Program-made: the position numbers and the translations under genes
Notes under the pieces: model-generated
Databases searched by the model: none
What the model saw: only the letters and a program-made list of their open reading frames with translations
Told to the model about the DNA's origin: nothing
In this document: positions 14,238-53,700 of the stretch, piece by piece
How positions within the stretch are numbered: the first letter of the stretch is position 1
Layout: the number at the start of each line of letters is the position of its first letter
Assembly: GCF_057098645.1 (NCBI RefSeq)
Contig: NZ_CM169472.1
Length of the DNA: 64,000 nt
Direction: 5' to 3' (one strand)

Positions 14238-14243
14238 AAACAG

Positions 14244-16047: not shown

Positions 16048-16391
16048 TTATCTTATCCAAACATAATAAAAAACCATATGGCCTTTAGTGTACAACAAAA
16101 CCATACTCTTTCCCCTCATTTTAGAGGGGGAAGTGTGGTCCACATCATGTTTTTTCCCACCCATGAAAATGTTCACCTAGGCTGGTGATGCATTTTATGT
16201 ACATCAACTCTTTGAGTTGAATCATTATTTTAGTATTTTTTCTATCATTGTGTAAATGTCTTCGTTTCAATACATCATGCTTGGGGAGCGGTCCCCGTTT
16301 CCTGATAATTAATGCTTGTGGATAGCAACGTCCGTGCCTGTATCGCTCAGACAGACGCTTACCGTGCCATAGACGTGTCTGTTCACATACG

Positions 16392-16586
16392 TCATTCAAT
16401 AACTCCTGCAAACCTGTAAATCTTGCGTGAAGCCCATTTATTTGGGCATGATTTAATATCAGGATCTGGAAAATCAGGCCTGTACTTCTGGCCAGTTCTC
16501 CGGTTTACGCTGTTCCAGCGAAGAACTGTCGATACTGAAACGCCACAGAAGTCGGCGACTTGTTTAGTTGTCATTAAGTTGTTCAT
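16392..16586 (-). CDS. xis: Excisionase / AlpA-family HTH DNA-binding protein
   Basis: 64 aa; MTTKQVADFCGVSVSTVLRW HTH, then the proline-rich FPDP segment typical of AlpA/Xis. Confidence 0.65.
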   Translation of the reverse strand: MNNLMTTKQVADFCGVSVSTVLRWNSVNRRTGQKYRPDFPDPDIKSCPNKWASRKIYRFAGVIE

Positions 16587-17206
16587 TACTTCACCTCCTG
16601 CGGCGGTTCCGGTAGCGGCATCCAGTGGGTTACTTTCGATGCCGGTTCTTCTCCATTGTCAGTAACTGCCCACCATTTGTTTCTCGAACAATCATAATAC
16701 CCTTCGAAGGTATCGCACTCAGTCCAGCCGTAAGACTTACCCCGACACCAAACATACTGTTTATCGTTCGGCATTCGCTCACTACAGCTTATCCAACCAT
16801 CCGGAGTTACCGGAGAGTTGCCCGACAGCTTGTTCAACTTGTAAGTCTGGCTTACAGGTTTGGCACCATGAAGCATGGTGGCGCGGCAGGCGTTCCAGCC
16901 TTCATCAAAACCGACTATGCCATTATTTAAAGACGGACGAGCATCTGGCACCACCAGTACTGGCTTGGCTATATATAGCGGCTGAACATACCAGCCCTTT
17001 GATAACCAACTGTCAGCAATGTTTTTGCTCCTGGTTATTGCCGGAATACCTAAGCCATTGTCTGAATGCAGCCATGCCACCGGCTCCTCTTCCAGCGATG
17101 CCAGAGCAATTTCATAAGCACGGCGCTCAATATCGTCTCGAACCTCTAGGCTGCTGATTCGTTCTTTGATTTCTTTAATCAGTTCTTTATTGGTAAATGT
17201 GGTCAT
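16586..17206 (-). CDS. Phage DUF551-domain protein
   Basis: 206 aa with a Trp/Cys-rich C-terminus ending ...KVTHWMPLPEPPQEVK, typical of DUF551. Confidence 0.6.
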   Translation of the reverse strand: MTTFTNKELIKEIKERISSLEVRDDIERRAYEIALASLEEEPVAWLHSDNGLGIPAITRSKNIADSWLSKGWYVQPLYIAKPVLVVPDARPSLNNGIVGFDEGWNACRATMLHGAKPVSQTYKLNKLSGNSPVTPDGWISCSERMPNDKQYVWCRGKSYGWTECDTFEGYYDCSRNKWWAVTDNGEEPASKVTHWMPLPEPPQEVK

Positions 17207-17568
17207 TATGCTCCAGCCTCCGGCGCTTTGGGTATTACTGCCCAGTGAGTGATATTGAAGTTTTCAAGGTCCCCGACCTGAAATGTCCACTGCCATTCTC
17301 CGGTTTCTTTTTGTCCCCAGGTGTACCAGAGAGAACGCCAGCCAATCAGCCAGCCTTCTCCGTTAGCATCAAATAACAGAACACTTTCATTTGCTGGTGG
17401 CAGTTCAGCTGACACTGGTATTATTTTGTTTTCCAGTGCCGCACATTTAGCTTCAAGCGCGTCGAATTTACGTACCAGGTACTCAGCATTTGTTTCGTTC
17501 ACTTTCAGATCTCGCGGTACACATTTCCCGCGAAGAAACCCTTCCATTTCGAAAACATTCATGCGCAT
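17206..17568 (-). CDS. Phage early protein, hypothetical (YfdS-like position)
   Basis: 120-aa ORF translationally coupled to its neighbours in the early-left operon. Confidence 0.5.
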   Translation of the reverse strand: MRMNVFEMEGFLRGKCVPRDLKVNETNAEYLVRKFDALEAKCAALENKIIPVSAELPPANESVLLFDANGEGWLIGWRSLWYTWGQKETGEWQWTFQVGDLENFNITHWAVIPKAPEAGA

Positions 17569-18095
17569 TTGCGTAACTCCGATAATTCGTTAAAGCGTTC
17601 CATAAACATCCCGTAGGCATGGCCTGGAGCCAGTGGAATCACGTTGATCATCTCTGTTGCCGGGATACCTTCCAGCACAGGCCAGAAAGAGCCATCATCA
17701 AGCCCGAGATCGCGGCGTTCGGTTGCCAGCATGATGAGATCGGCATATTTCACGGGTGTACTCATAACCGGGGGTAACCCGTATTTCTCACGGATTACGG
17801 CGTCTATTTTTTCTTCCATCCGTTTATAGTCAGGAAGAAGGCGTTTCAGTGGAGCCGGGATGTCCTGGCAATACGCTTCTGTTGCATCATGCATTAACGC
17901 TTCAAAAGCAAATTCCTGCGGTACCAGTTTGCTGCAAAGCACCGCATGTTGGGCGACGCTGTAGAAGTGTGAAAGATGACCGGCAAAGCGACAGATATTT
18001 GAAAGGGAAACTGCGATATCGTTAATCACGATGTCGTCTTTATTTATCCTGTCATAATAAAAATGCTTCCCGGAAAAAGTTTTAATAAATGACAT
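17559..18095 (-). CDS. HD-domain phosphohydrolase (YfdR-like 5'-deoxynucleotidase)
   Basis: Starts MSFIKTFSGKHFYY...; HD motif ...VAQHAVLCS ... MHDATEAY; the ORF-track start at 18122 is an extension. Confidence 0.7.
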   Translation of the reverse strand: MSFIKTFSGKHFYYDRINKDDIVINDIAVSLSNICRFAGHLSHFYSVAQHAVLCSKLVPQEFAFEALMHDATEAYCQDIPAPLKRLLPDYKRMEEKIDAVIREKYGLPPVMSTPVKYADLIMLATERRDLGLDDGSFWPVLEGIPATEMINVIPLAPGHAYGMFMERFNELSELRKCA

Positions 18096-34201: not shown

Positions 34202-34410
34202 ACCAGAATGATATCGAAGCCATGATTCAGCGTTATACGGAAGCTGAAATGGCGGTGCTGGACGGAAAATCCGTCACCTTTAATGGTCAGCAGATGACCA
34301 TGGAAAACTTATCTGAGATCCGGCAGGGACGGCAGGAGTGGGAGCGCCGCCTTGCGGCTCTGATTACACGACGACGGGGGCATCCTGGGTACCGGCTGGC
34401 GAGGTTCTGA
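34198..34410 (+). CDS. Head-tail joining protein (gpW-like)
   Basis: ~70 aa ending ...RRRGHPGYRLARF (lambda W ends ...RRRGPAGFYV); ATG overlaps the terminase stop (ATGA). Confidence 0.7.
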   Translation: MNQNDIEAMIQRYTEAEMAVLDGKSVTFNGQQMTMENLSEIRQGRQEWERRLAALITRRRGHPGYRLARF

Positions 34411-35918
34411 TGGCAATTCTTGATGATGTGATTGGCGTTTTTTCACCAGGATGGAAAGCGGCAAGGCTGCGTTCCCGTGCGGTGATCCAGGCTTATGAGG
34501 CCGTAAAAACGACACGGACACACAAAGCCCGGCGGGAAAACCGAACTGCCGACCAGTTAAGCCAGTACGGGGCCGTGTCGTTACGTGAGCAGGCCCGTTA
34601 CCTTGATAACAACCACGATCTGGTTATTGGTGTATTTGACAAGCTGGAAGAACGGGTGGTGGGGAAAAACGGGATTATTGTCGAGCCACATCCGGTATTA
34701 CGCAATGGGGCCATTGCCCGTGATCTGGCAGCGGAGATACGCACCCGATGGAGTGAATGGTCTGTCAGTCCGGAAGTCACCGGGCAGTTTACCCGTCCGA
34801 TGCTGGAACGTCTGATGCTGCGTACCTGGCTGCGCGATGGTGAGGTGTTTGCCCAGATGGTTTCCGGGCGCATAAACAGCCTGACGCCTTCTGCCGGTGT
34901 TCATTTCTGGCTGGAGGCGCTCGAGCCGGACTTTATTCCCATGACCAGTGATGAGAGCAACAGGCTGAATCAGGGCGTGTTTGTTGATGACTGGGGGCGT
35001 CCCGAAAAATATCTGGTGTATAAAAGCCGTCCCGTATCCGGGCGGCAGATGGAAACCAAAGAAGTGGATGCAGAGCGAATGCTGCATCTTAAATTTGTTC
35101 GCCGTCTGCACCAGATGCGCGGGACGTCTTTGTTGTCCGGTGTGCTGATCCGCCTCAGTGCCCTGAAAGAGTATGAAGATTCTGAGCTGACTGCAGCAAG
35201 GATCGCCGCTGCTCTGGGGATGTACATCCGGAAAGGCGACGGGCAGAGCTATGAACCGGATGGTAATGGCAGCAAGGAGAATGAACGCGAGCTTACCATT
35301 CAGCCAGGCATTATTTACGACGATCTGAAACCCGGCGAAGAAATCGGAATGGTGAAGTCGGATCGTCCCAATCCTAACCTTGAAACTTTTCGTAATGGTC
35401 AGTTGCGTGCCGTGGCGGCGGGCAGTCGTCTGAGTTTTTCCAGTACGGCACGCAACTATAACGGCACTTACAGCGCCCAGCGTCAGGAACTGGTTGAGTC
35501 TACTGATGGCTACCTGATCCTGCAGGACTGGTTTATTGGTGCCGTCACCCGCCCGATGTATCGTGCCTGGCTGAAACAGGCTGTGGCATCCGGTGTTATC
35601 AGGTTACCCCGCGATCTTGACCGTTCTTCACTGTATACCGCGGTGTATTCCGGACCAGTGATGCCGTGGATTGACCCTGTTAAGGAGGCTGAGGCCTGGA
35701 AAATCCAGATTCGTGGTGGAGCGGCGACAGAATCAGACTGGGTACGTGCTGGTGGTCGTAATCCGGATGATGTCAAACGTCGGCGCAAGGCCGAAATTGA
35801 TGAAAACCGCAAGCTGGATCTGGTATTTGATACCGATCCGGCCAGTGATAAAGGAGGCAGCAGTGCCGCAACGAAACGACAGGAGCCGCAGCACACCGAC
35901 GACCAGTCCGAAGAATAA
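34410..35918 (+). CDS. Portal protein
   Basis: ~500-aa ORF between W and the protease-capsid gene; start MAILDDVIGVF... Confidence 0.8.
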   Translation: MAILDDVIGVFSPGWKAARLRSRAVIQAYEAVKTTRTHKARRENRTADQLSQYGAVSLREQARYLDNNHDLVIGVFDKLEERVVGKNGIIVEPHPVLRNGAIARDLAAEIRTRWSEWSVSPEVTGQFTRPMLERLMLRTWLRDGEVFAQMVSGRINSLTPSAGVHFWLEALEPDFIPMTSDESNRLNQGVFVDDWGRPEKYLVYKSRPVSGRQMETKEVDAERMLHLKFVRRLHQMRGTSLLSGVLIRLSALKEYEDSELTAARIAAALGMYIRKGDGQSYEPDGNGSKENERELTIQPGIIYDDLKPGEEIGMVKSDRPNPNLETFRNGQLRAVAAGSRLSFSSTARNYNGTYSAQRQELVESTDGYLILQDWFIGAVTRPMYRAWLKQAVASGVIRLPRDLDRSSLYTAVYSGPVMPWIDPVKEAEAWKIQIRGGAATESDWVRAGGRNPDDVKRRRKAEIDENRKLDLVFDTDPASDKGGSSAATKRQEPQHTDDQSEE

Positions 35919-35931
35919 TTCCTGGTTCAGG

Positions 35932-37890
35932 ATGCAGGCTGGTCACCAGAGTGACGCGGATATTTATATTTATGACGAGATTGGTTTCTGGGGTGTTACA
36001 GCGAAGCAGTTTATCAGTGATCTGAATGCACTGGGCGATATCACCCACATTAATCTCCATATTAATTCACCGGGTGGCGATGTCTTTGAAGGCATCGCCA
36101 TTTTTAATGCGCTGAAAACACATGGTGCGTCCATTACCGTTTATGTCGACGGTGTGGCGGCGTCAATGGCGTCGGTCATTGCGATGGTGGGAAACCCGGT
36201 CATTATGCCGGAAAACACCTTCATGATGATTCATAAACCATTTGGCTTTACGGGCGGTGATGCGGAGGACATGCGCACCTATGCCGACCTGCTCGATAAG
36301 GTTGAGGCGGTTCTGTTACCCGCTTATGCACAGAAAACCGGGAAAACCACCGATGAAATTGCTGCCATGCTGGCGGATGAGACCTGGATGTCCGGTGCCG
36401 AATGTCTGGCACATGGATTTGCTGATCAGGTAACGCCAGCCGTTAAGGCAATGGCATGTATTCAGTCAAAACGTACAGAGGAATTTAAAAAGATGCCGGA
36501 ATCCATTCGAAACATGATTACTCCGCCACGCAACAGTGCTCCACGCGTACAGGATGATGAACCTGCAGCCTCCCGGACGCCAGTGCAGGCAGCAGCACCC
36601 GTGGTGGATGAAAACAGTATCCGTGCGCAGGTACTGGCAGAGCAAAAAGCGCGTGTAAACGGTATTAATGATCTGTTTGCCATGTTTGGCGGGCGTTATC
36701 AGACGCTGCAGGCTCAGTGTCTTGCCGATCCTGAATGTTCGCTGGAGCAGGCCCGCGAAAAGCTGTTGAACGAGATGGGGCGCGAGTCCACGCCATCCAA
36801 TAAAAATACCCCGGCTCATATTTATGCCGGTAACGGTAATTTTGTGGGGGACGGGATCCGCCAGGCGCTGATGGCGCGTGCCGGATTTGAAAAAACCGAA
36901 CGTGATAATGTCTACAACGGGATGACCCTGCGTGAATATGCCCGTATGTCACTGACTGAACGGGGTATTGGGGTTTCCAGTTATAACCCGATGCAGATGG
37001 TCGGTGCGGCGTTCACACACAGTACGTCTGACTTCGGTAATATTCTGCTGGATGTTGCGAACAAAGCCATTCTGCAGGGCTGGGAAGATGCCCCTGAAAC
37101 CTATGAACAGTGGACGCGGAAAGGTCAGTTGTCTGATTTTAAAATTGCCCATCGTGTGGGTATGGGGGGCTTCAGTGCTCTGCGTCAGGTGCGTGAAGGG
37201 GCGGAATATAAATACGTCACCACCGGAGATAAACAGGCCACTATTGCACTGGCGACCTATGGCGAGCTGTTCAGTATCACCCGTCAGGCCATTATCAATG
37301 ATGATCTGAATATGCTGACCGATGTCCCGATGAAACTGGGCCGTGCGGCGAAATCCACTATTGCCGATCTGGTTTATGCCATTCTGACGTCTAACCCGAA
37401 AATCTCCACAGATAATGTAAGTCTGTTCGATAAAGCGAAACATGCAAACGTACTGGAGAGCGCTGCAATGGACGTGGCATCGCTGGATAAAGCCCGCCAG
37501 TTGATGCGCGTTCAGAAAGAGGGGGAGCGTCATCTGAATATTCGTCCTGCGTTCGTACTGGTACCGACGGCGATGGAGTCTGTTGCTAACCAGGTCATTC
37601 GCTCCTCAAGTGTCAAGGGGGCTGACATTAACGCCGGTATTATTAACCCGGTGAAAGATTTTGCGACCGTTATTGCAGAGCCTCGTCTTGATGATAACAG
37701 CCAGACCACTTTCTACCTGGCTGCGTCCAAAGGCTCCGATACGATTGAAGTGGCTTATCTCAACGGTGTGGATACGCCATATATTGATCAGATGGAGGGC
37801 TTCAGTGTGGATGGCGTGACAACGAAAGTGCGTATTGACGCCGGTGTCGCGCCAGTTGATCACCGCGGTCTGGTGAAATGTACGGCGTAA
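35932..37890 (+). CDS. Prohead protease (ClpP/S49-like) fused to the major capsid protein
   Basis: N-terminal ClpP-like region (INSPGGDVFEGIAIFNALK ... MASVIAM), central coiled-coil scaffold-like segment, C-terminal ~300-aa capsid-like domain; ATG at 35932. Confidence 0.75.
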   Translation: MQAGHQSDADIYIYDEIGFWGVTAKQFISDLNALGDITHINLHINSPGGDVFEGIAIFNALKTHGASITVYVDGVAASMASVIAMVGNPVIMPENTFMMIHKPFGFTGGDAEDMRTYADLLDKVEAVLLPAYAQKTGKTTDEIAAMLADETWMSGAECLAHGFADQVTPAVKAMACIQSKRTEEFKKMPESIRNMITPPRNSAPRVQDDEPAASRTPVQAAAPVVDENSIRAQVLAEQKARVNGINDLFAMFGGRYQTLQAQCLADPECSLEQAREKLLNEMGRESTPSNKNTPAHIYAGNGNFVGDGIRQALMARAGFEKTERDNVYNGMTLREYARMSLTERGIGVSSYNPMQMVGAAFTHSTSDFGNILLDVANKAILQGWEDAPETYEQWTRKGQLSDFKIAHRVGMGGFSALRQVREGAEYKYVTTGDKQATIALATYGELFSITRQAIINDDLNMLTDVPMKLGRAAKSTIADLVYAILTSNPKISTDNVSLFDKAKHANVLESAAMDVASLDKARQLMRVQKEGERHLNIRPAFVLVPTAMESVANQVIRSSSVKGADINAGIINPVKDFATVIAEPRLDDNSQTTFYLAASKGSDTIEVAYLNGVDTPYIDQMEGFSVDGVTTKVRIDAGVAPVDHRGLVKCTA

Positions 37891-37976: not shown

Positions 37977-38300
37977 ATGGCAAAGAATTTTGTAGAAGAA
38001 GGAAAAACGGTGGCGATTGTTGCCAGTGCAGCCATCAGCAGCGGAGATCTGGTGCAGGTGGGCGATGTTTTTGCGGTGGCGCTGACCGATATTCCACAGG
38101 GTGAAACAGGCGACGGCATGACCGAAGGTGTGTTTATGCTGCCTAAGCTGAAAACGGATGACATGAAAACGGGTAAGAAGGTTTATCTGAAGTCCGGAAA
38201 AGTTCAGCTGACTAACAGCGGCTCTGATCCGCTGGTCGGGGTTGTCTGGGCAGATGCCGGAACCAGTGCAGAAGAAGTGCCGGTAAAACTCAATGTCTGA
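37977..38300 (+). CDS. Head decoration / DUF2190-like small head protein
   Basis: ~107 aa from MAKNFVEEGKTVAI... with a GGAG RBS; directly after the capsid gene. Confidence 0.5.
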   Translation: MAKNFVEEGKTVAIVASAAISSGDLVQVGDVFAVALTDIPQGETGDGMTEGVFMLPKLKTDDMKTGKKVYLKSGKVQLTNSGSDPLVGVVWADAGTSAEEVPVKLNV

Positions 38301-41096: not shown

Positions 41097-44000
41097 TTTG
41101 GGGATTGATGCGGCAGAGTTTAAAAATGAAATTCCCCGTATCAAAAACCTTCTGAATGGTGCCGCCAGCGATGCAGAACGGTCTTCTGCCCGTATGCAGC
41201 GTTTTATGGAGCGTCAGACTCAGGCCGCCCGGCAGACAACGCAGGCGGCTTCTTCGGCTGCAACAGCCGCCTCCGTCCATGCGCAGACGGTGGAGAAGAA
41301 CGCACAGGCTCATGAACGCATGGCCCGCGAGGTGGAGAAAACCCGCCAGCGCATGGAGGCGCTGAGCCAGAAAATGCGCGATGAACAGGCGCAGGCCATG
41401 GCTCTGGCGGAGGCTCAGGATAAAGCGGCTGCTGCGTTTTATCGTCAGATTGACAGTGTGAAACAGGCCAGTGCGGGGCTGCAGGAATTACAGCGTATTC
41501 AGCAGCAGATCCGACAGGCCAGAAACAGTGGCGGGATTGGTCAGCAGGATTATCTGGCGCTGATTTCTGAGGTTACGGCGAAAACCCGTGTTCTTACACA
41601 GGCTGAGGAAGAGGCTACCCGACAGAAAGTGGCGTTTATCCGTCAGCTTAAAGAGCAGGCAACCCGCCAGAATCTTTCTTCTTCTGAGTTGCTTCGTGCT
41701 AAGGCTGCCCAGCTGGGGGTAAGCAGTGCTGCAGAAGTGTATATCCGCAAAATGGAGCAGGCAGGAAAAGCCACGCATTCGCTGGGTCTGAAAAGTGCAG
41801 CGGCCCGCCAGGAGATAGGCGTTCTGATAGGTGAACTGGCTCGCGGCAATTTAGGTGCGCTGAGGGGATCCGGGATAACGCTGGCTAACCGTGCCGGATG
41901 GATAGACACACTGATGTCACCGAAAGGCATGATGCTGGGCGGGGTTATTGGCGGTATTGCCGCGGCCGTCTATGGTCTGGGTAAAGCCTGGTATGATGGT
42001 CAGAAGGAGGGGGAAGAATTTAACCGCCAGTTGTCGCTGACGGGGCATTATGCCGGAGTCACTGCCGGGCAGCTGTGGACGCTCAGTCGTGCTATTTCCG
42101 GGAATGGTATTACGCAACATGCTGCAGCCGGTGCGCTGGCTCAGGTGGTGGGGAGTGGTGCATTTCGTGGAAACGATATCGGTATGGTGGCGAGAGCTGC
42201 CGCACAGATGGAGCGATCGGTTGGCCAGTCGGTCAGCGATACCATAAATCAGTTTAAGCGGCTGAAGGATGATCCTGTAAATGCCGCGAAGGCTCTGGAC
42301 AATGAGCTGCATTTTCTTACTGCCACTCAGCTTGAGCAGATACGCGTCCTTGGGGAACAGGGGCGGTCCAGTGATGCGGCACGGATAGCCATGTCTGCAC
42401 TGGCAGAGGAAACCGGTCGGCGTACTGCGGATATTGATAATAACCTCAATGCGCTGGGCAGTACGCTGAAGTATCTGTCTGATTTATGGAGTCGTTTCTG
42501 GGATGCGGCCATGAATATTGGTCGTGAAGACTCGCTGGATGAACAGATTTCCGCTTTACAGGAGAAAGTGTCGCAGGCGAAAAGACTCCCCTGGACGGCA
42601 TCATCTTCTCAGGTTGAGTACGATCAGCAGCGTCTTAACGAGCTTCAGGAGAAAAAACGCCAGAAGGATTTGCAGGATGCAAAAGAGCAGGCAGAGCGGA
42701 ATTATCAGGAGCAACAGAAACGCCGTAATGCTGAAAATGCTGCACTGAACCGGATGAATGAAACGGAAGCAGCACGACATCAGCGTGAAATTGCGCGTAT
42801 TAATGCCATGCAGTACGCCGATCAGGCTGTCAGGGATGCGGCGATACAACGTGAAAATGAACGTTACGAGAAAGCCCTGGCATCCGGTAAGAAAAAAACA
42901 CGCGAACCCCGTAATGATGAGGCCACCCGGTTATTGCTGCAGTACAGTCAGCAACAGGCACAGGTGGAAGGACAGATTGCTGCTGCCAGACAGTCAGCAG
43001 GCATTGCCACGGAAAGGATGACAGAAGCGCATAAACAGCTTCTGGCTCTGCAGCAGCGCATCAGCGACCTGGACGGGAAAAAACTGACGGCAGATGAAAA
43101 GAGTGTGCTGGCCCGTAAAGATGAACTGATTCAGGCACTGACGCTGCTGGATGTAAAACAGCAGGAGCTTCAGAAACAGACGGCACTCAACGAGCTGAAG
43201 AAAAAAACAATTCAGCTGACCAGTCAACTGGCTGAAGAAGAGCGCGCTCAGCGTCAGCAACATGACCTGGATATCGCCACGGTGGGTATGGGTGATCAGC
43301 AGCGGCAGCGATATCAGGTACAACTGAGTCTTCGCCAGAAATACCAGCAACAGCTGGAACAGTTGAGGCGGGATAGTGAGCAGAAAGGAACATATAACAC
43401 GGATGACTACAGAAAGGCCGAGCAGGCGCTGACGGAGAGCCTGAACCGACAACTGAATGAGAATCGCCGTTACTGGCAACAGCTTGAAGTTGTGCAGGGT
43501 AACTGGAAAAACGGAGTCCTGCGTGCATTTCAGGATTTTACCGTGGATGCAGATAATACGGCAGGAACAGCAGAACAGGTGTTCTCGTCAGCCTTCAGCA
43601 ACATGGGAAATGGCCTGGCAACTTTTGTCACTACCGGCAAACTCAATTTCAAATCCTTCACCTCTTCTGTGCTGTCAGATATGGCGAAAATCCTGGCGCA
43701 GGCAACCATGATGAAATCGATAAAAGGGATTGGCAGTGTACTGGGATTTGATCTCAGCAGCCTTTCCCTGAATGCCAATGGGGGGATTTATCAGTCTGCT
43801 GATTTGAGTCGTTACAGTGGCACGGTGGTTAACCGTCCGACGTTTTTTGCTTTTGCAAAAGGCGCGGGTGTGATGGGGGAAGCGGGACCTGAAGCCATTC
43901 TGCCACTGCGTCGTGGTGCTGACGGTAAGCTGGGGGTTGTGGCGGATATTGGTGGTTCAGGTATGGCGATGTTTGCCCCGCAGTACAACATCGAGATCAA

Positions 44001-44133
44001 TAACGATGGCACGAACGGGCAGATAGGTCCGGCTGCCCTGAAGGTGGTTTATGACCTTGGGAAAAAAGCGGCAGCGGACTTTATGCAACAGCAGGCCCGT
44101 GATGGTGGTCGGTTAAGTGGAGCATATCGGTAA
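41068..44133 (+). CDS. Tail tape measure protein (gpH-like)
   Basis: ~1020-aa coiled-coil-rich protein between G-T and M; GGAGG RBS before the ATG at 41068. Confidence 0.88.
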   Translation: MDQIANLVIDLGIDAAEFKNEIPRIKNLLNGAASDAERSSARMQRFMERQTQAARQTTQAASSAATAASVHAQTVEKNAQAHERMAREVEKTRQRMEALSQKMRDEQAQAMALAEAQDKAAAAFYRQIDSVKQASAGLQELQRIQQQIRQARNSGGIGQQDYLALISEVTAKTRVLTQAEEEATRQKVAFIRQLKEQATRQNLSSSELLRAKAAQLGVSSAAEVYIRKMEQAGKATHSLGLKSAAARQEIGVLIGELARGNLGALRGSGITLANRAGWIDTLMSPKGMMLGGVIGGIAAAVYGLGKAWYDGQKEGEEFNRQLSLTGHYAGVTAGQLWTLSRAISGNGITQHAAAGALAQVVGSGAFRGNDIGMVARAAAQMERSVGQSVSDTINQFKRLKDDPVNAAKALDNELHFLTATQLEQIRVLGEQGRSSDAARIAMSALAEETGRRTADIDNNLNALGSTLKYLSDLWSRFWDAAMNIGREDSLDEQISALQEKVSQAKRLPWTASSSQVEYDQQRLNELQEKKRQKDLQDAKEQAERNYQEQQKRRNAENAALNRMNETEAARHQREIARINAMQYADQAVRDAAIQRENERYEKALASGKKKTREPRNDEATRLLLQYSQQQAQVEGQIAAARQSAGIATERMTEAHKQLLALQQRISDLDGKKLTADEKSVLARKDELIQALTLLDVKQQELQKQTALNELKKKTIQLTSQLAEEERAQRQQHDLDIATVGMGDQQRQRYQVQLSLRQKYQQQLEQLRRDSEQKGTYNTDDYRKAEQALTESLNRQLNENRRYWQQLEVVQGNWKNGVLRAFQDFTVDADNTAGTAEQVFSSAFSNMGNGLATFVTTGKLNFKSFTSSVLSDMAKILAQATMMKSIKGIGSVLGFDLSSLSLNANGGIYQSADLSRYSGTVVNRPTFFAFAKGAGVMGEAGPEAILPLRRGADGKLGVVADIGGSGMAMFAPQYNIEINNDGTNGQIGPAALKVVYDLGKKAAADFMQQQARDGGRLSGAYR

Positions 44134-44462
44134 TGGAGACGTTTCACTGGAAAGTGCGCCCGGATATGAATGTGGTATCAGAGCCGAAAGTGGTGACAGT
44201 GAAGCTGGGCGATGGTTATGAACAGCGTCGTGCGGCGGGACTGAATAACCAGTTGTCGACTTACAGCGTGACGATACGTGTTCGTAAATGTGAACACCCA
44301 TCTTTAAAAGCCTTTCTGGAACGGCACGGTGGCGTCCGTGCATTTCAGTGGACGCCACCTTATGACTGGAAACCGATTAGGGTGGTTTGTCGTAAATGGT
44401 CGGCAAGCGTGGGGGCGCTGTGGGTAACCATAACGGCAGATTTTGAACAGGTCGTGGCATAG
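44133..44462 (+). CDS. Minor tail protein M (lambda gpM-like)
   Basis: 109 aa, METFHWKVRPDMNVVSEPKV... Confidence 0.85.
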   Translation: METFHWKVRPDMNVVSEPKVVTVKLGDGYEQRRAAGLNNQLSTYSVTIRVRKCEHPSLKAFLERHGGVRAFQWTPPYDWKPIRVVCRKWSASVGALWVTITADFEQVVA

Positions 44463-44471
44463 GAGGCTCTG

Positions 44472-45170
44472 ATGCAGGATATTCCACAGGAAACACATCA
44501 TGAGACGACACGCCTCACTCAGTCAGCCCAGGTGGTGCTCTGGGAAATCGATCTGACAGAGGTCGGTGGTGAACGTTATTTTTTCTGTAATGAGCAGAAC
44601 GAAAAAGGTGAGCCGGTTACCTGGCAGGGGCGGCAGTATCAGGCATACCCCATTCAGGGGACGGGATTTGAACTGAATGGCAAGGGCAGTGCTGCCCGTC
44701 CGACACTGACGGTTTCTAACCTGCACGGCATGGTCACCGGGATGGCGGAAGACCTGCAGAGTCTGGTCGGCGGAACGGTGGTCAGGCGTAAGGTTTACGC
44801 CCGTTTTCTGGATGCGGTGAACTTCGTCAACGGAAACAGCGACGCCGATCCGGAGCAGGAGGTGATCAGCCGCTGGCGCATCGAGCAGTGCAGCGAACTG
44901 AGTGCGGTCAGTGCCTCCTTTGTGTTGTCCACACCGACGGAAACGGATGGTGCCGTTTTTCCGGGGCGCATCATGCTGGCCAACACCTGCACCTGGACCT
45001 ATCGCAGTGATGAGTGCGGTTATCACGGTCCGGCTGTCGCGGATGAATATGATCAGCCGACGTCCGATATCACGAAGGATAAATGCAGCAAATGCCTGAG
45101 TGGCTGTAAGTTCCGCAATAATGTCGGCAACTTTGGCGGCTTCCTTTCCATTAACAAACTTTCGCAGTAA
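44472..45170 (+). CDS. Minor tail protein L (lambda gpL-like)
   Basis: 232 aa with a C-terminal Cys cluster (CSKCLSGCKF). Confidence 0.85.
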   Translation: MQDIPQETHHETTRLTQSAQVVLWEIDLTEVGGERYFFCNEQNEKGEPVTWQGRQYQAYPIQGTGFELNGKGSAARPTLTVSNLHGMVTGMAEDLQSLVGGTVVRRKVYARFLDAVNFVNGNSDADPEQEVISRWRIEQCSELSAVSASFVLSTPTETDGAVFPGRIMLANTCTWTYRSDECGYHGPAVADEYDQPTSDITKDKCSKCLSGCKFRNNVGNFGGFLSINKLSQ

Positions 45171-45175
45171 ATCCC

Positions 45176-45919
45176 ATGACAGAGACAGAATCAGCGATTC
45201 TGGCGCACGCCCGGCGATGTGCGCCAGCGGAGTCGTGCGGCTTCGTGGTGAGAACGCCGGAAGGGGAAAGATATTTTCCCTGCGTGAATATCTCCGGTGA
45301 GCCGGAGGATTATTTCCGGATGTCGCCGGAGGACTGGCTGCGGGCAGAGATGCAGGGTGAGATTGTGGCGCTGGTCCACAGCCACCCCGGTGGCCTGCCC
45401 TGGCTGAGTGAGGCTGACCGGCGGCTGCAGGTGCAGAGTGATTTGCCATGGTGGCTGGTCTGCCGGGGGGCGATTCATAAATTCCGCTGTGTGCCGCATC
45501 TTACCGGGCGGCGCTTTGAGCACGGGGTGACGGATTGTTACACGCTGTTCCGGGACGCTTACCATCTGGCGGGGATTGAGATGCCGGATTTTCATCGTGA
45601 GGATGACTGGTGGCGTAACGGCCAGAATCTCTATCTGGATAATCTGGAGGCCACAGGACTGTATCAGGTGCCGTTGTCATCAGCACAACCGGGTGATGTG
45701 CTGCTGTGCTGTTTTGGTTCATCGGTGCCGAATCATGCCGCCATTTACTGTGGTGACGGCGAGCTGCTGCACCATATTCCTGAACAACTGAGCAAACGAG
45801 AGAGGTATACAGACAAATGGCAGCGACGCACACACTCCCTCTGGCGTCACCGGGCATGGCACGCATCTGCCTTTACGGGGATTTACAACGATTTGGCCGC
45901 CGCATCGACCTTCGTGTGA
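45176..45919 (+). CDS. Tail assembly protein K (lambda gpK-like, JAB/MPN plus NlpC/P60 domains)
   Basis: JAB-like HSHPGG motif and an NlpC/P60-like Cys/His region. Confidence 0.85.
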   Translation: MTETESAILAHARRCAPAESCGFVVRTPEGERYFPCVNISGEPEDYFRMSPEDWLRAEMQGEIVALVHSHPGGLPWLSEADRRLQVQSDLPWWLVCRGAIHKFRCVPHLTGRRFEHGVTDCYTLFRDAYHLAGIEMPDFHREDDWWRNGQNLYLDNLEATGLYQVPLSSAQPGDVLLCCFGSSVPNHAAIYCGDGELLHHIPEQLSKRERYTDKWQRRTHSLWRHRAWHASAFTGIYNDLAAASTFV

Positions 45920-46458
45920 AAACGGGGGCTGAAGCCATCCGCGCACTGGCCACACAGCTCCCGGCGTTTCGTCAGAAACTGAGCGACGGCTGGTATCAGG
46001 TACGGATTGCCGGGCGTGATGCAGGCGAAAATGAATTATCAGCCCGTCTTAATGAACCGCTGGCAAATGGTGCTGTGATCCATATCGTGCCGCGTCTGGC
46101 AGGAGCCAAAAGTGGCGGTGTGTTTCAGGCTGTGCTGGGGGCGGCTGTTATGGCGGTTGCTATATGGATGCCGGGGGTAGGAATTATGGCGAGTAATCTG
46201 CTGTTTTCTCTCGGTGCCAGTATGACGCTTGGCGGTGTTGCACAGATGCTGGCCCCTAAACCCAAAACCCCCCGCACACAGACAACGGATAACGGCAAAC
46301 AGAACACCTATTTTTCTTCACTGGATAATATGGTTGCCCAGGGCAATGTCCTGCCCGTTCTGTACGGTGAAATGCGTGTGGGGTCGCGGGTGGTATCTCA
46401 GGAGATCAGCACGGCAGATGAAGGTGATGGTGGTCAGGTTGTGGTGATTGGTCGCTGA
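45817..46458 (+). CDS. Tail assembly protein I (lambda gpI-like)
   Basis: MAATHTLPLASPGMARICLYGDLQRFGRRIDLRVKTGAEAIRALATQLPAFRQKLSDGWYQVRIAGRD... near-identical to remembered lambda I; overlaps the K 3' end. Confidence 0.88.
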   Translation: MAATHTLPLASPGMARICLYGDLQRFGRRIDLRVKTGAEAIRALATQLPAFRQKLSDGWYQVRIAGRDAGENELSARLNEPLANGAVIHIVPRLAGAKSGGVFQAVLGAAVMAVAIWMPGVGIMASNLLFSLGASMTLGGVAQMLAPKPKTPRTQTTDNGKQNTYFSSLDNMVAQGNVLPVLYGEMRVGSRVVSQEISTADEGDGGQVVVIGR

Positions 46459-46518
46459 TGAAAAATGTTTTATGTGAAACCGCCTGCGGGCGGTTTTGTC
46501 GTTTATGGAGCGTGACGA

Positions 46519-49500
46519 ATGGGTAAAGGCAGCAGTAAGGGGCATACCCCGCGCGAAGCGAAGGACAACCTGAAATCCACGCAGTTGCTGAGTGTGATTG
46601 ATGCCATCAGTGAAGGGCCGGTTGAAGGTCCGGTGGATGGATTAAAAAGCGTGCTGCTGAACAGTACGCCGGTGCTGGACAGTGAGGGGAATACCAACAT
46701 CGCCGGTGTCACGGTGGTGTTCCGGGCTGGTGAGCAGGAGCAGACTCCGCCGGAGGGATTTGAATCCTCCGGCTCCGAGACGGTGCTGGGTACGGAAGTG
46801 AAATACGACACGCCGATCACCCGCACCATCACGTCGGCAAACATCGACCGTCTGCGCTTTACCTTCGGTGTACAGGCACTGGTGGAAACCACCTCAAAGG
46901 GTGACAGGAATCCGTCGGAAGTCCGTCTGCTGGTTCAGATACAACGTAACGGTGGCTGGGTGACGGAAAAAGACATCACCATTAAGGGCAAAACCACCTC
47001 GCAGTATCTGGCCTCGGTGGTGGTGGGTAGCCTGCCGCCGCGCCCGTTTAATATCCGGATGCGCAGGATGACGCCGGACAGCACCACAGACCAGCTGCAG
47101 AACAAAACGCTCTGGTCGTCATACACCGAAATCATCGATGTGAAACAGTGCTACCCGAACACGGCACTGGTCGGCGTGCAGGTGGACTCGGAGCAGTTCG
47201 GCAGCCAGCAGGTGAGCCGTAATTATCATCTTCGCGGGCGCATTCTGCAGGTGCCGTCGAACTATAACCCGCAGACGCGGCAATACAGCGGTATCTGGGA
47301 CGGAACGTTAAAGCCAGCATACAGCAACAACATGGCCTGGTGTCTGTGGGATATGCTGACCCACCCGCGCTACGGCATGGGGAAACGTCTTGGTGCGGCG
47401 GATGTGGACAAATGGGCGCTGTATGTCATCGGCCAGTATTGCGACCAGTCGGTGCCGGACGGTTTTGGCGGCACGGAGTCGCGCATCACCTGTAACGCTT
47501 ACCTGACCACACAGCGTAAGGCGTGGGATGTTCTCAGTGATTTCTGCTCGGCGATGCGCTGTATGCCGGTATGGAACGGGCAGACGCTGACGTTCGTGCA
47601 GGACCGACCGTCGGATAAGGTGTGGACCTATAACCGCAGTAATGTGGTGATGCCGGATGATGGCGCGCCGTTCCGCTACAGTTTCAGCGCCCTGAAGGAC
47701 CGCCATAATGCCGTTGAGGTGAACTGGATTGACCCGAATAACGGCTGGGAGACGGCGACAGAGCTTGTGGAGGACACGCAGGCCATTCTCCGTTACGGTC
47801 GTAACGTCACGAAGATGGATGCCTTTGGCTGTACCAGCCGGGGGCAGGCACACCGCGCCGGGCTGTGGCTGATTAAAACGGAGCTGCTGGAAACGCAGAC
47901 TGTGGACTTCAGCGTGGGCGCAGAAGGGCTTCGCCATGTACCGGGCGATGTCATTGAAATCTGCGATGATGACTATGCGGGTATCAGCGTCGGCGGGCGC
48001 GTGCTTGCGGTAAACAGCCAGACCCGGACACTGACGCTCGACCGTGAAATCATGCTGCCATCCTCCGGAACCACGCTGATAAGCCTGGTTGACGGAAATG
48101 GCAATCCGGTCAGCGTGGAGGTCCAGTCCGTCACCGACGGCGTGAAGGTGAAAGTGAGCCGTGTTCCTGACGGCGTTGCCGAATACAGCGTGTGGGGGCT
48201 GAAGCTGCCGACGCTGCGCCAGCGCCTGTTCCGCTGCGTGAGTATCCGTGAGAACGATGACGGCACGTATGCCATCACCGCCGTGCAGCATGTACCGGAG
48301 AAAGAAGCCATCGTGGATAACGGGGCGCACTTTGACGGTGACCAGAGCGGCACGGTGAATGGTGTCACGCCGCCAGCAGTGCAGCACCTGACCGCCGAAG
48401 TCACTGCAGACAGCGGGGAATATCAGGTGCTGGCGCGATGGGACACACCGAAGGTGGTGAAGGGCGTGAGCTTCCTGCTCCGTCTGACCGTAACAGCGGA
48501 TGACGGCAGTGAGCGGCTGGTCAGCACGGCCCGGACGACGGAAACCACTTACCGCTTCACACAACTGGCGCTGGGGAACTACAGGCTGACAGTCCGGGCA
48601 GTAAATGCGTGGGGGCAGCAGGGCGATCCGGCGTCGGTATCGTTCCGGATTGCCGCACCGGCAGCGCCGTCGCGGATTGAGCTGACGCCGGGCTATTTTC
48701 AGATAACCGCCACGCCGCATCTTGCGGTTTATGATCCGACGGTACAGTTTGAGTTCTGGTTCTCGGAAAAGCGGATTGCGGATATCAGGCAGGTTGAAAC
48801 CACAGCACGCTATCTTGGCACGGCGCTGTACTGGATAGCCGCCAGTATCAATATCAAACCGGGCCATGATTATTACTTTTATATCCGCAGTGTGAACACC
48901 GTTGGCAAATCGGCATTCGTGGAGGCTGTTGGTCAGCCGAGTGATGATGCATCCGGTTATCTGGATTTTTTCAAAGGCGAGATAGGGAAAACCCATCTGG
49001 CTCAGGAGCTGTGGACGCAGATTGATAACGGTCAGCTTGCGCCTGACCTGGCTGAAATCAGGACGTCCATTACGGATGTCAGCAATGAAATCACGCAGAC
49101 CGTCAATAAGAAACTGGAAGACCAGAGTGCTGCAATTCAGCAGATACAGAAGGTTCAGGTTGATACAAATAATAACCTGAACAGCATGTGGGCTGTGAAG
49201 CTGCAGCAGATGCAGGACGGACGCCTTTATATCGCGGGTATTGGTGCCGGTATTGAGAATACCCCTGACGGCATGCAGAGTCAGGTGCTGCTGGCGGCGG
49301 ACAGGATTGCGATGGTTAATCCTGCGAATGGCAACACAAAACCGATGTTTGTTGGTCAGGGCGATCAGATATTCATGAACGACGTGTTCCTGAAACGCCT
49401 GACGGCTCCCACCATTACCAGCGGTGGAAATCCGCCGGCATTTTCCCTGACACCAGACGGAAAGCTGACCGCTAAAAATGCGGATATCAGCGGTAATGTG

Positions 49501-50067: not shown

Positions 50068-50667
50068 ATGCGTAAACTTTATGCCGCCATTTTGTCCGCA
50101 GCCATTTGTCTGGCCGTATCCGGTGCGCCTGCATGGGCGTCTGAACATCAGTCCACGCTGAGCGCGGGGTATCTTCATGCCCGGACGAACGTTCCCGGCG
50201 GTGATGATCTGAACGGGATTAACGTGAAATACCGTTATGAGTTTACGGACACACTGGGGATGGTGACGTCGTTCAGCTATGCAGGAGACAAGAATCGCCA
50301 GATTACCCGTTACAGCGATACCCGCTGGCATGAAGATTCCATTCGTAACCGCTGGTTCAGCGTAATGGCGGGGCCGTCTGTGCGCGTGAATGAATGGTTC
50401 AGCGCGTATGCGATGGCGGGTGTGGCTTACAGCCGTGTGTCGACTTTCTCCGGGGATTATCTCCGCGTAACTGACAACAAGGGGAAAAAGCACGATGTGC
50501 TGACCGGAAGTGATGACGGTCGCCACAGCAACACGTCTCTGGCGTGGGGAGCTGGCGTGCAGTTTAACCCGACCGAATCCGTGGCCATTGATGTCGCTTA
50601 TGAAGGCTCCGGCAGTGGTGACTGGCGCACTGACGGTTTCATCGTGGGTGTCGGTTATAAATTCTGA
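50068..50667 (+). CDS. lom: Lom outer-membrane beta-barrel protein (Ail/Lom family moron)
   Basis: Signal peptide and beta-barrel ending ...GVGYKF; position after J as in lambda. Confidence 0.88.
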
Positions 50668-50695
50668 TTAGCCAGGTAACACAGTGTTATGACAG

Positions 50696-50720
50696 CCCGC
50701 CGGTTCAGGCGGGCTTTTTT
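50696..50720 (+). terminator. Intrinsic terminator after lom
   Basis: gcccgccggttcaggcgggc followed by tttttt. Confidence 0.7.
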
Positions 50721-50725
50721 GTGGG

Positions 50726-53700
50726 GTGAATATGGCAGTAAAGATTTCAGGTGTACTGAAAGACGGCACAGGAAAACCGGTACAGAACTGCACAATCCAG
50801 CTGAAAGCAAAACGTAACAGCACCACGGTGGTGGTGAACACGCTGGCCTCAGAAAATCCGGATGAAGCCGGGCGTTACAGCATGGACGTTGAGTACGGGC
50901 AGTACAGCGTTATTCTGTTGGTGGAGGGATTCCCGCCGTCACATGCCGGGACCATCACCGTGTATGAAGATTCCCGACCCGGTACGCTGAATGATTTTCT
51001 CGGTGCCATGACGGAGGATGATGCCCGTCCTGAGGCACTGCGCCGTTTTGAACTGATGGTGGAAGAGGTGGCGCGTAACGCGTCCGCGGTGGCACAGAAC
51101 ACGGCAGCCGCGAAGAAGTCAGCCAGCGATGCCGGCACATCAGCCCGTGAGGCGGCAACCCATGCGACTGATGCTGCAGGCTCAGCACGCGCAGCCAGCA
51201 CGTCAGCCGGACAGGCCGCGTCGTCGGCTCAGTCAGCGTCTTCCAGCGCAGGAACGGCATCAACAAAGGCCAGTGAAGCATCGAAAAGTGCTGCTGCTGC
51301 AGAGTCCTCAAAAAGCGCGGCGGCTACCAGTGCCGGTGCGGCGAAAACGTCAGAAACGAATGCTGCAGCGTCACAAAAATCTGCAGCCACTTCTGCATCC
51401 ACCGCGACCACGAAAGCGTCAGAAGCTGCCACCTCAGCCCGGGATGCAGCGGCCTCAAAAGAGGCAGCGAAATCATCAGAAACGAGCGCAGCCTCGAGCG
51501 CCAGTAATGCCGCTTCCTCGGCAACAGCGGCAGGAAATTCCGCGAAGGCGGCAAAAACGTCCGAGACGAACGCCAGGTCTTCTGAAACGGCAGCGGAACA
51601 GAGCGCCTCAGCTGCGGCAGACTCTGAGACAACAGCTGCATCATCGGCCCGTGAGGCGTCCATTAAGGCAGAGGAGGCAGCAGTCAGTGCCACCGCCGCC
51701 GGAAAATCGGCAGAAAGCGCCGCATCATCCGCTTCAACAGCCACAACGAAGGCTGGCGAAGCCACTGAACAGGCCAGCGCAGCAGCGAGGTCTGCTTCCG
51801 CAGCGAAGACATCCGAAACGAACGCGAAAGCGTCGGAAACCAGCGCAGAATCCTCAAAAACGGCTGCCGCATCGTCCGCCAGTTCGGCGGCGTCATCGGC
51901 ATCATCGGCGTCTGCTTCAAAAGATGAGGCGACCAGACAGGCGTCAGCAGCGAGGGGCAGCGCCACGACGGCATCCACGAAGGCGACAGAGGCTGCTGGC
52001 AGTGCGGCAGCGGCAGCACAGAGCAAAAGTACGGCAGAATCCGCAGCAACGCGCGCCGAGACAGCAGCAAAACGGGCAGAGGATATTGCATCCGCCGTGG
52101 CGCTTGAGGATGCGAGCACGACGAAAAAGGGGATAGTACAGCTCAGCAGTGCGACCAACAGCACTTCCGAGTCACTGGCGGCAACGCCAAAAGCCGTTAA
52201 GGCCGCGTATGACCTGGCTAACGGGAAATACACCGCACAGGATGCAACGACAGCACAGAAAGGGATAATCCAGCTAAGCAGCGCGACCAACAGCACGTCT
52301 GAAACGCTGGCGGCAACGCCAAAGGCAGTAAAAGCAGCCAATGACAATGCTGAGAAACGTCTGCAGAAAGATCAGAACGGTGCGGATATCCCTGGCAAAG
52401 ACACCTTTACGAAAAATATTGGTGCCTGCCGTGCCTTCGGTGGGTCAGTAAGCACAACAACAGGAAACTGGACGACTGCACAGTTTATCGAGTGGCTGGA
52501 TTCTCAGGGAGCATTTAACCATCCATACTGGATGTGCAAGGGTTCCTGGTCTTATGGCAATAATAAAATCATTACTGATACTGGCTGCGGTAATATTCAT
52601 CTCGCCGGAGCTGTCATTGAAGTAATGGGGATAAAGTCAGCGATGACGATCCGCATTACCACACCGACCACCTCCACTGGTGGTGGAACAACTAACGCCC
52701 AGTTTACCTATATTAATCACGGAACAGATTATTCACCTGGCTGGCGAAGGGACTATAACTCCAGAAATAAGCCAACGGCATCAGAGATCGGGGCGTTACC
52801 GTCAGGTGGAACAGCAGTATCATCAGTTAATCTGTCTTCAAAAGGTCGGGTAACCGCGCTGACAGACAATACGCAGGGGGCAACAGGTCTTGAGTTATAC
52901 GAGGTGTATAACAACGGATATCCAACAGCGTATGGAAATATCATTCACCTGAAAGGGATGACAGCCGTTGGCGAAGGTGAGTTACTCATCGGCTGGAGTG
53001 GTACAAGCGGTGCTCATGCTCCGGCATTTATTCGTTCACGACGGGATACGACCGACGCAAACTGGTCGCCGTGGGCGCAGCTTTACACCTCGGCTCATCC
53101 TCCTGCAGAGTTTTATCCAGTCGGTGCACCAATCCCGTGGCCATCAGATACCGTTCCGTCTGGTTATGCCCTGATGCAGGGGCAGACTTTTGACAAATCT
53201 GCTTACCCGAAACTTGCAGCCGCTTATCCGTCAGGCGTGATCCCTGATATGCGTGGCTGGACGATTAAGGGCAAGCCCGCCAGTGATCGAGCCGTATTGT
53301 CTCAGGAACAGGACGGCATTAAATCACACACCCACAGCGCCAGCGTATCCAGTACGGATTTGGGGACGAAAACCACATCGTCGTTTGATTACGGCACTAA
53401 ATCCACGAATAACACTGGTGCGCATACCCATAGTGTTAGCGGTACGGCTGCTTCAGCCGGTGCACATACCCATTCGATGACATTTGTTTCAGGTGGTTCC
53501 AGTGGTGCTCCGGGAAGTGGATCACCTGATTACTCTAAATACAGTGTTAACACTTCTTCTGCAGGCGCTCATACGCACTCTGTATCGGGTACTGCTGCAA
53601 GCGCAGGTGCACACGCACATACTGTCGGTATTGGTGCTCATACGCACTCCGTTGCGATTGGTTCACATGGACATACCATCACCGTTAACGCTGCTGGTAA

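Follow-up and report, generated by a model that had tools for sequence, protein, structure and literature searches.

A single Gifsy-2-type gene encodes a ClpP-like protease and an HK97-fold capsid protein in a lambdoid prophage of E. coli

We analysed a window of 64,000 nucleotides (contig NZ_CM169472.1, assembly GCF_057098645.1) that carries a lambdoid prophage of the Gifsy-2 type, whose insertion site in E. coli lies between yjjG and prfC. All features described below lie on the + strand. The head-tail module is complete from the terminase to the tail fibres, and its genes follow the order TerS, TerL, small W-like gene, portal, protease-capsid fusion, cement protein, PF13856 protein, gpZ, gpU, and gpV. 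The profile matches flanking the fusion gene were GpA_ATPase/GpA_nuclease, Phage_portal_2, and Phage_cement_2. The upstream neighbour is the portal gene (34410..35918; lambda family PF05136), whose last 56 nt overlap the fusion gene. Downstream lies the gene of a 107-aa cement/decoration protein (37977..38300; Phage_cement_2, DUF2190), which is 61% identical to its Gifsy-2 counterpart.

The reading frame of the fusion gene is open without interruption from 35671, the earliest potential start codon downstream of the in-frame stop at 35659, to the stop at 37888-37890. Translation from ATG 35932 resulted in 652 aa, exactly the length given in the initial annotation, so the single ORF ending at 37890 is present as described there. 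The stop of that interval (35932-37890) was retained, whereas translation probably starts at GTG 35863, 69 nt upstream of the ATG. A Shine-Dalgarno sequence, AAAGGAGG (35850..35857), was read 5 nt upstream of GTG 35863 and forms with it the sole strong Shine-Dalgarno/start pair in the fusion frame; inspection of the sequence before ATG 35932 revealed no comparable one. RefSeq/PGAP also uses GTG 35863, and in each of the 14 close homologs inspected the protein begins 36 residues ahead of the YDEIG motif. Additionally, homologs keep the NSWF motif that precedes Met24 but rarely Met24 itself: only 11 of 84 diverse homologs have Met at this position, and Gifsy-2 has Ile. Due to these observations taken together, GTG 35863 was considered the likely start. 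The probable full gene then covers 35863..37890 and encodes 675 aa (73.5 kDa), with ATG 35932 as codon 24. Residues 1-20 (35863..35922), coded mostly inside the portal overlap, constitute a basic, disordered tail (AF2 pLDDT about 35-52) that varies in sequence among homologs and is conserved in start position. The start of the fusion gene overlaps the 3' end of the portal gene in the window, in Gifsy-2, in a Pseudomonas phage, and in a Paenibacillus phage.

It is hardly credible that a frameshift or an assembly error joined separate protease and capsid genes here. Merges made by indels do occur at the locus, as sporadic 1159-aa ORFs of portal plus fusion are found in databases; however, the protease-capsid frame is unbroken in 1971 complete E. 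coli genomes, in phages, and across over 100 clusters that share the architecture at 35-60% identity and lengths of about 640-750 aa, and NCBIfam holds a model specifically for the protease-capsid fusion. The phages with the continuous frame include about 16 near-identical genomes, Gifsy-2, and Pseudomonas and Paenibacillus phages. A programmed portal-to-capsid frameshift was also rejected. The 1159-aa ORFs switch frame at many positions (portal residues 421-492), and such scattered switches point to independent indels or errors.

The first folded part, residues 21-195 (35923..36447), is a ClpP-fold S14-like serine protease according to HMM searches, PDB alignments, and Foldseek. The Pfam CLP_protease profile matched residues 23-168 (E 4e-36), starting at position 29 of its 182 positions, and the NCBIfam model NF045542, 'head maturation protease, ClpP-related', scored 216 bits against a cut-off of 120. 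Foldseek retrieved ClpP at an E-value of about 1e-13 with a TM (target) of about 0.8. In the PDB ClpP alignments, Ser101 (codon 36163-36165) and His124 (codon 36232-36234) line up with the ClpP catalytic residues, and both are invariant in 84 of 84 homologs. The acidic Glu173 (codon 36379-36381), located by homolog alignment, is kept in 72 of the 84 and is Asp in 8 more. The catalytic residues are intact in the window copy. The HMM check passed, and the strong homology upholds the N-terminal ClpP-like protease proposed earlier; we looked for merged genes and for a lack of protease homology and found neither. The previous designation 'ClpP/S49-like' is correct in its ClpP/S14 part but not in its S49 part, as the SppA/S49 model matched weakly (22 bits against a cut-off of 155). 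The protein is not a member of the cellular ATP-dependent ClpP family (TIGR00493; 59.7 bits against a cut-off of 308.6), and the domain sits in a 675-aa capsid precursor.

The segment between protease and capsid, residues 196-326, comprises a disordered linker and three helices that are weakly Nu3-like. The 'coiled-coil linker' described initially had to be abandoned, as AF2 secondary structure gives a disordered Pro/Ala-rich stretch and three short helices and does not support a long coiled coil. AF2 and the 84-sequence alignment delimit the linker to residues 196-249 (36448..36609), the least conserved and most gapped region of that alignment; within it, residues 224-246 are Pro/Ala-rich, disordered (pLDDT below 50), and different in length among homologs. 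Because this variable linker splits the alignment, some matches appear as two stretches. An alternative N-terminal protease in the two-stretch matches was rejected, as eight of ten proteins scanned have ClpP and capsid domains only. The single-stretch exceptions among the ten are P0265, which adds a portal domain, and P0166 (443 aa), which has no ClpP domain.

The helical middle domain, residues 250-307 (36610..36783), contains helices at 250-273, 280-288, and 294-307 (24, 9, and 14 residues) in the AF2 model and is a putative internal scaffold, Nu3-like and delta-domain-like. The family definition places a central scaffold domain of about 130-200 residues between the protease and capsid parts, and residues 250-307 may act as the scaffold. 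The hhalign comparison of the whole family profile with lambda gpC/Nu3 gave a weak, collinear match (probability 86.6%, E 4.5e-6) that extends over gpC 123-422, the Nu3 part included. The middle domain alone scored 20.4 against Nu3, compared with 9.8 ± 1.6 for shuffled Nu3, at an hhalign probability of 7%. It is followed by a variable, low-confidence junction, residues 308-326 (ESTPSNKNTPAHIYAGNGN; 36784..36840; pLDDT 57-76), which differs in length and sequence among homologs between the conserved LLxxLG...P and ARAG motifs. Judging from this variability and from the model, the cut that releases the capsid protein during maturation would most likely fall within the junction.

Residues 327-675 (36841..37887; about 38 kDa) form an HK97-fold major capsid protein domain according to Pfam, AF2, and Foldseek. 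Pfam Phage_capsid_4 matched residues 352-649 with an E-value of 7e-55, and the Mu gpT match in the same domain was weak. The AF2 model of the domain reached a pLDDT of 92 and a pTM of 0.86, and Foldseek retrieved HK97 Head II, phage D3, phiXacJX1, and encapsulins (E about 1e-10, 13-15% identity). A PDB sequence search with the domain returned only a marginal Mu gpT-domain match (8rkc/8rkx; E 3e-4, about 55 residues), and the PDB searches yielded no high-resolution structure of the capsid family, the best matches being at 13-15% identity. The profile match and the fold, by AF2 and Foldseek, bear out the C-terminal capsid-like domain of the initial annotation. It is very improbable that the gene encodes a protease/scaffold only, with the capsid protein encoded elsewhere. 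Many phage records do annotate the same gene as protease, scaffold, Nu3, or preconnector; however, the Phage_capsid_4 match and the HK97-type fold occupy the C-terminal 350 residues, neither the window ORFs nor the annotation contain another capsid-like gene between the terminase/portal and tail genes, and some records call the same gene major head or capsid protein. The deposited names range over 'putative protease/scaffold protein', 'head-tail preconnector protease C', 'Nu3', 'head maturation protease', 'terminase protein', and major head/capsid protein.

The complete protein scored 985.2 bits against NCBIfam NF045540 (scaf_prot_MCP1; cut-off 475), in an alignment that spans positions 2-651 of the 652 in the model, and the Gifsy-2 protein scored 949.6 bits. 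PHROG 133 matched over the full length. Membership in NF045540 is indicated by the family HMM, the Ser and His of the ClpP fold, the HK97 fold, and the head-module context. The architecture is already known, and the protein is an ordinary member of a named family; the initial annotation described the architecture correctly but did not recognise that the family had been named and characterised. Among 5426 complete E. coli genomes, 1971 (about 36%) carry the same gene at ≥80% coverage, with an identical PGAP name. The isolated phages Tritos, mEp460, cdtI, and Ayreon also carry it, with 99-99.8% DNA identity for the latter three. Defective prophages are frequent in E. coli, and the annotation of a related genome marks some neighbouring genes (DUF551, tail fibre assembly) as partial pseudogenes, which would suit a decaying gene with no present function. 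Such a relic is nevertheless unlikely, as the ORF is intact, its product is 100% identical in amino acids to that of the isolated phage Tritos, the catalytic residues are preserved, and the head-tail module is complete.

The window protein shares 70% full-length identity with that of Gifsy-2 (STM1034.3n / STM1033 region), together with the three-part architecture, an NF045540 score above the cut-off, the flanking gene order, and the portal overlap. The differences are an 11-residue shorter linker and a different N-terminal tail in the window, which represent ordinary divergence only. The synteny of the head module extends to Gifsy-2 and Pseudomonas phage BR133a. Effantin et al. 2010 (Virology 402:355) reportedly described the protease, scaffold, and capsid of Gifsy-2 as one gene. 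Passages of a published article refer to this 'tripartite capsid gene' and credit it to Effantin et al. 2010 (PMC12315714), and passages of another place a trimeric decoration protein on the 3-fold axes of Gifsy-2 (PMC8538268). A T=7 shell is likewise mentioned in published passages, for Gifsy-2 only. Our literature searches on the fusion and on ClpP prohead proteases retrieved nothing beyond citations of Effantin et al. 2010 and no biochemical study of the E. coli copy itself. For the window, the ORF, domain folds, catalytic residues, family membership, and synteny were established directly.

The fusion resembles the lambda system in its position after a lambda-family portal, in a ClpP-clan protease followed by a scaffold-like helical segment, and in an HK97-fold shell with a small trimeric cement protein. 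However, lambda gpC is an S49 protease, gpNu3 a nested scaffold, and gpE a separate capsid gene, whereas the window protease is S14-like and the capsid is fused to it; the decoration gene follows the capsid region in the window and precedes it in lambda (gpD). BLASTP of the fusion protein against lambda gpC and gpE found no significant similarity, and a profile comparison with gpE found no match. A gpE-family capsid protein, an S49 protease, and a nested scaffold start, which make up a lambda-type head gene set, were not found. HMM searches, structure prediction, and fold search agree that the single ORF replaces lambda C/Nu3/E, as previously proposed.

In HK97, the gp5 capsid protein similarly carries a fused scaffold-like N-terminal extension that is cut off by a phage protease, and Head II matched the window C-terminal domain in Foldseek (E 5e-10), although the shell identity is just 13-15%. 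In contrast to the window, the HK97 protease gp4 (S78) is a separate gene of another fold family, and the shell has no cement protein and is held by covalent chainmail cross-links. The middle and capsid parts are homologous to NF045541 (scaf_prot_MCP2), on which the window protein scored 400 bits over residues 197-649 only, below the cut-off of 525 for membership. An example of NF045541 is the 680-aa 'peptidase' of Paenibacillus phage Pd_22F, which shares with the window the order TerL, small gene, portal, fusion, and small gene, as well as the portal overlap; its first 370 or so residues have no ClpP or other Pfam match. Stand-alone ClpP-related proteases (NF045542) of staphylococcal, streptococcal, mycobacterial, and Paenibacillus phages are 32-48% identical to the window protease domain over about 160-200 residues; they are separate proteins of about 200 aa, encoded beside individual genes for scaffold and capsid. 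Of 1563 phage records that matched, about 1480 align to the protease part alone.

The initial annotation also assigned the head module to a different lineage from the lambda-like tail module, which is true in degree. TerL is 24.6% identical to gpA and the portal 22.5% to gpB, whereas gpZ/U/V share 50-55% identity with the lambda proteins and the tail-tip DNA (M-J) shares 89%. The head module belongs to the Gifsy-2 type; however, sequence comparison still identifies TerL, the portal, and the protease-scaffold part as remote homologs of lambda A, B, and C/Nu3, arranged as in lambda.

We are highly confident that the gene encodes a Gifsy-2-type capsid precursor, consisting of a protease, a flexible linker, a Nu3-like helical domain, and an HK97 shell domain, that would mature by self-cleavage. 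By extension from studies of Gifsy-2 and from the way HK97 and lambda assemble, we infer where cleavage falls, which part serves as scaffold, in what stoichiometry the parts occur, and in which order assembly proceeds. One 73.5-kDa polypeptide, probably translated from GTG 35863, would supply each capsid subunit, and on the portal the shell domains would jointly form a T=7 procapsid in which the protease and scaffold parts face the interior. By analogy, the protease to capsid protein ratio would be fixed at 1:1, and a separate scaffold and a protease-targeting signal would then be unnecessary.

With about 415 proteases in every T=7 shell, such a ratio looks wasteful and could favour a nested gene, in which an internal in-frame start yields a bulk scaffold-capsid protein and the full-length fusion is minor, as in lambda, where Nu3 is annotated as nested in C. 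The linker does contain ATG codons at residues 197 and 211, but neither has a good Shine-Dalgarno. Alanine occupies position 197 in 48 of 84 homologs, 62 of the 84 have Ala, Val, Ile, or Pro at position 211, and Met falls outside the five commonest residues at both positions. With neither a conserved Met nor a Shine-Dalgarno, an internal start like that of lambda Nu3 was rejected, and the nested gene is improbable.

For the full-length precursor, the model continues with crowding within the shell, which may switch the protease on. The protease would then cut the variable junction (around residues 308-326) and degrade the N-terminal parts, leaving a mature capsid protein of roughly 38-40 kDa. 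With DNA packaging the shell would expand, and trimers of the cement protein (37977-38300) may stabilise it, like lambda gpD.

Whether residues 250-307 are truly homologous to the C-terminal region of lambda Nu3 and the portal overlap is also functional was considered jointly, and we regard this combination as possible but doubtful. If the homology is true, the Gifsy-2-type gene and lambda C/Nu3 would share one protease-scaffold ancestor, which would have gained different HK97-fold capsid genes by fusion or lost them by a split. If the overlap is functional, it may provide translational coupling or a role of the basic N-terminal tail in portal-nucleated assembly. The identity of the gene is unchanged either way.

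The fusion is among the commonest prophage head genes of E. coli. Its discovery value is small due to the Gifsy-2 description of 2010, the NCBIfam model of its own, and this commonness. Passages of the literature report that one or more automated capsid-finding pipelines retrieved no capsid protein for Gifsy-2. Given this miss and the inconsistent naming of the gene, recognising the fusion prevents 'missing capsid gene' errors.

The fusion frame on the + strand extends without interruption from 35671 to the stop codon at 37888-37890, with the preceding in-frame stop at 35659, and its ATG at 35932 yields exactly the 652-aa product proposed in the initial annotation. The HMM search detected Pfam CLP_protease at residues 23-168 (E 4e-36) and Phage_capsid_4 at residues 352-649 (E 7e-55), together with a weak Mu gpT match; residues are numbered on the 675-aa product from GTG 35863. 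PHROG 133 matched the protein end to end, and NCBIfam NF045540 (ClpP-like prohead protease/major capsid protein fusion; cut-off 475 bits) matched over the whole model length with 985 bits. The protease part reached 216 bits against NF045542, "head maturation protease, ClpP-related". The single ORF with protease and capsid domains was thus read directly in the frame, and the observation is real, far beyond chance, because both domains were confirmed by HMM searches. Of the "ClpP/S49-like" description, the ClpP half was retained, but S49 was replaced by S14. The reading in the initial annotation is right, but the gene family has been described and named before and is very common; new here are only the upstream start with its portal overlap, S14 instead of S49, the linker structure, and a tentative Nu3 link.

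The sequence AAAGGAGG precedes GTG 35863 with a 5-nt spacing, whereas no comparable Shine-Dalgarno was found for ATG 35932. PGAP also starts the gene at 35863, and the start lies 36 residues before the YDEIG motif in all 14 close homologs, in which NSWF, just upstream of Met24, is conserved as well. Only 11 of 84 diverse homologs have Met at position 24, and Gifsy-2 has Ile there. Therefore, the fusion gene probably starts 56 nt inside the portal gene, at GTG 35863. The annotated portal/fusion overlap spans 56 nt in the window (35863-35918), 86 nt in the Gifsy-2 record L004 (22471-22556), 29 nt in Pseudomonas phage BR133a (L007, 3905-3933), and 35 nt in Paenibacillus phage Pd_22F (L006, 2323-2357), and this recurrence may be a sign of translational coupling. 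A nested internal start supplying protease-free subunits is unlikely, because the internal ATGs of the fusion gene lack both a good Shine-Dalgarno and a conserved Met.

An AlphaFold2 model built on the 84 diverse homologs (mean pLDDT 89) predicted a disordered basic tail (residues 1-20) followed by a ClpP fold (21-195), which matched ClpP structures in Foldseek (E ~1e-13, target TM ~0.8). In the alignment with ClpP, the catalytic Ser and His correspond to Ser101 (AASMA) and His124 (MIHKP), which are invariant in 84/84 homologs; the ClpP Asp position is occupied by Glu173, with Glu in 72/84 homologs and Asp in 8/84. The "coiled-coil linker" of the initial annotation gave way in the model to a flexible linker and a small helical domain. 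The linker (196-249) has a predicted disordered, Pro/Ala-rich core at 224-246, the least conserved and most gapped region of the homolog alignment, and precedes three predicted helices of 24, 9, and 14 residues (250-307). A low-confidence junction, variable among homologs (308-326), leads to an HK97-fold domain (327-675; separate model pLDDT 92, pTM 0.86), whose Foldseek matches were HK97 Head II, D3, phiXacJX1, and encapsulins (E ~1e-10, 13-15% identity).

At the DNA level, 1971 of the 5426 complete E. coli genomes contained the fusion gene with a coverage of ≥80%, the copies carrying exactly the NF045540 name in their annotation. The gene was 98.6-99.8% identical in the isolated phages mEp460, cdtI, Tritos, Ayreon, HannyBb, and others, and at the protein level Tritos shows 100% identity. 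When the representatives of 50%-identity clusters were searched exhaustively, well over 100 relatives of ~640-750 aa came up, 35-60% identical and aligned from around residue 20 through to the C-terminus. ClpP and capsid domains occurred together in nine of the 10 representatives scanned, and the remaining one, P0166 (443 aa), comprised the capsid part only. Pseudomonas phage BR133a shares both the fusion and its gene order. The merging of two genes by a frameshift or assembly error, raised initially, was ruled out by these E. coli and phage copies, the relatives, and the BR133a synteny, with the frame intact throughout.

At least a dozen public-database ORFs of ~1159 aa (also 1135 and 1080 aa) join the portal to the protease-capsid protein, which concerns window 35662-35918, the portal 3' end and the upstream open part of the fusion frame. 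A programmed portal-to-fusion event was excluded for these, since the frame switches at many different portal positions (421-492), as expected of independent indels or sequencing errors. The representative P0265 (1224 aa, 37% identical) also holds portal, ClpP, and capsid within one ORF. GenBank phage records name the same gene (≥99% identical; 74% in mEp043) in highly inconsistent ways: 'Major head protein', 'putative protease/scaffold protein', 'head-tail preconnector protease C', 'head-tail preconnector protein Nu3', 'head maturation protease', and 'terminase protein'. One published pipeline missed the HK97-fold capsid protein of Gifsy-2.

The Gifsy-2 fusion gene is, according to citing papers, the subject of Effantin et al., and Gifsy-2 is listed as T=7 in PMC8814770. 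Its product, annotated "Clp protease involved in capsid processing", is 70% identical to the window protein over the full length and scores 950 bits on NF045540. The Effantin et al. abstract reportedly describes an N-terminal ClpP-like protease, a central domain of ~200 residues with a possible scaffolding role, and a C-terminal capsid protein. The Paenibacillus phage Pd_22F gene (L006, 2323-4362) belongs to the sister fusion family NF045541 (630 bits). Its middle and capsid parts are homologous and it keeps the window's order of TerL, portal, and fusion, but neither ClpP nor any other Pfam model hit its N-terminal ~370 aa; this suggests that the protease domain was replaced while the fusion architecture was conserved.

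Upstream of the fusion gene lie a gpA-family large terminase, a 72-aa gene at the W position, and a lambda-family portal; downstream are a Phage_cement_2 protein, a PF13856 "Gifsy-2" family protein, and gpZ, gpU, and gpV homologs. TerL and portal are 24.6% and 22.5% identical to lambda gpA and gpB, the fusion protein had no significant BLASTP match to gpC or gpE, and the head genes share no DNA similarity with lambda, whereas the gpZ, gpU, and gpV homologs are 50-55% identical and the tail-tip genes M-J 89% in DNA. Because the identities fall into two classes, the head module is deeply diverged and the tail close, a typical lambdoid mosaic with a sharp boundary between modules. The proposed "different lineage" of the head thus agrees with its 22-25% identity against 50-89% for the tail, but a distant relationship persists: the fusion-family profile aligned to gpC 123-422, including the Nu3 portion (hhalign probability 86.6%, E 4.5e-6), so that the head module is not unrelated to that of lambda; the profile did not match gpE. 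The middle domain alone (250-307, window 36610-36783) scored 20.4 when aligned to Nu3 103-157, at an hhalign probability of only 7%, and 50 shuffled Nu3 sequences scored 9.8 ± 1.6 (maximum 14.4). The alignment, weak but collinear, with motifs AE..R...I and tv..Ar..L, tentatively links this domain to Nu3.

The whole element is a ~42-kb lambdoid prophage (~12600-54900) between yjjG (11790-12467) and prfC, flanked by ordinary E. coli core genes (opgB, dnaC, dnaT, fhuF, rsmC, holD, rimI; yjjI, yjjU, yjjW). Lambda-like tail DNA occupies 43995-49015 and 50540-51622; the M, L, K, I, J region is 89% identical to lambda 12965-18002, and identity reaches 87% in part of the side tail fibre region. Just inside the integrase end, a 535-aa ORF (14244-15851, - strand) adjoins the integrase (12853-14091, + strand) where the GC content is low (34% across 14001-16000), and appears to be a defence gene carried by the prophage as cargo, because near-identical E. 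coli genomes annotate its counterpart as 'anti-phage dCTP deaminase'. The three tRNA-Leu(CAG) genes in tandem upstream of the prophage (9190-9512, - strand), annotated only as tRNA-Leu in a near-identical genome and probably the E. coli leuQPV cluster, are ordinary chromosomal content, not the attachment site.

One polypeptide thus carries a catalytically equipped ClpP-fold protease, a variable flexible linker and junction, a helical domain, and an HK97-fold shell domain, and the cement protein gene comes after it. From Gifsy-2, HK97, and lambda, we infer that shell domains would build a T=7 procapsid on the portal and enclose the N-terminal parts. The protease, present in a 1:1 ratio to the shell protein, would be activated by crowding, cut in the 308-326 junction, and then degrade the internal parts, leaving a shell protein of ~38-40 kDa; cement-protein trimers would bind the 3-fold sites once DNA is packaged and the shell expanded.
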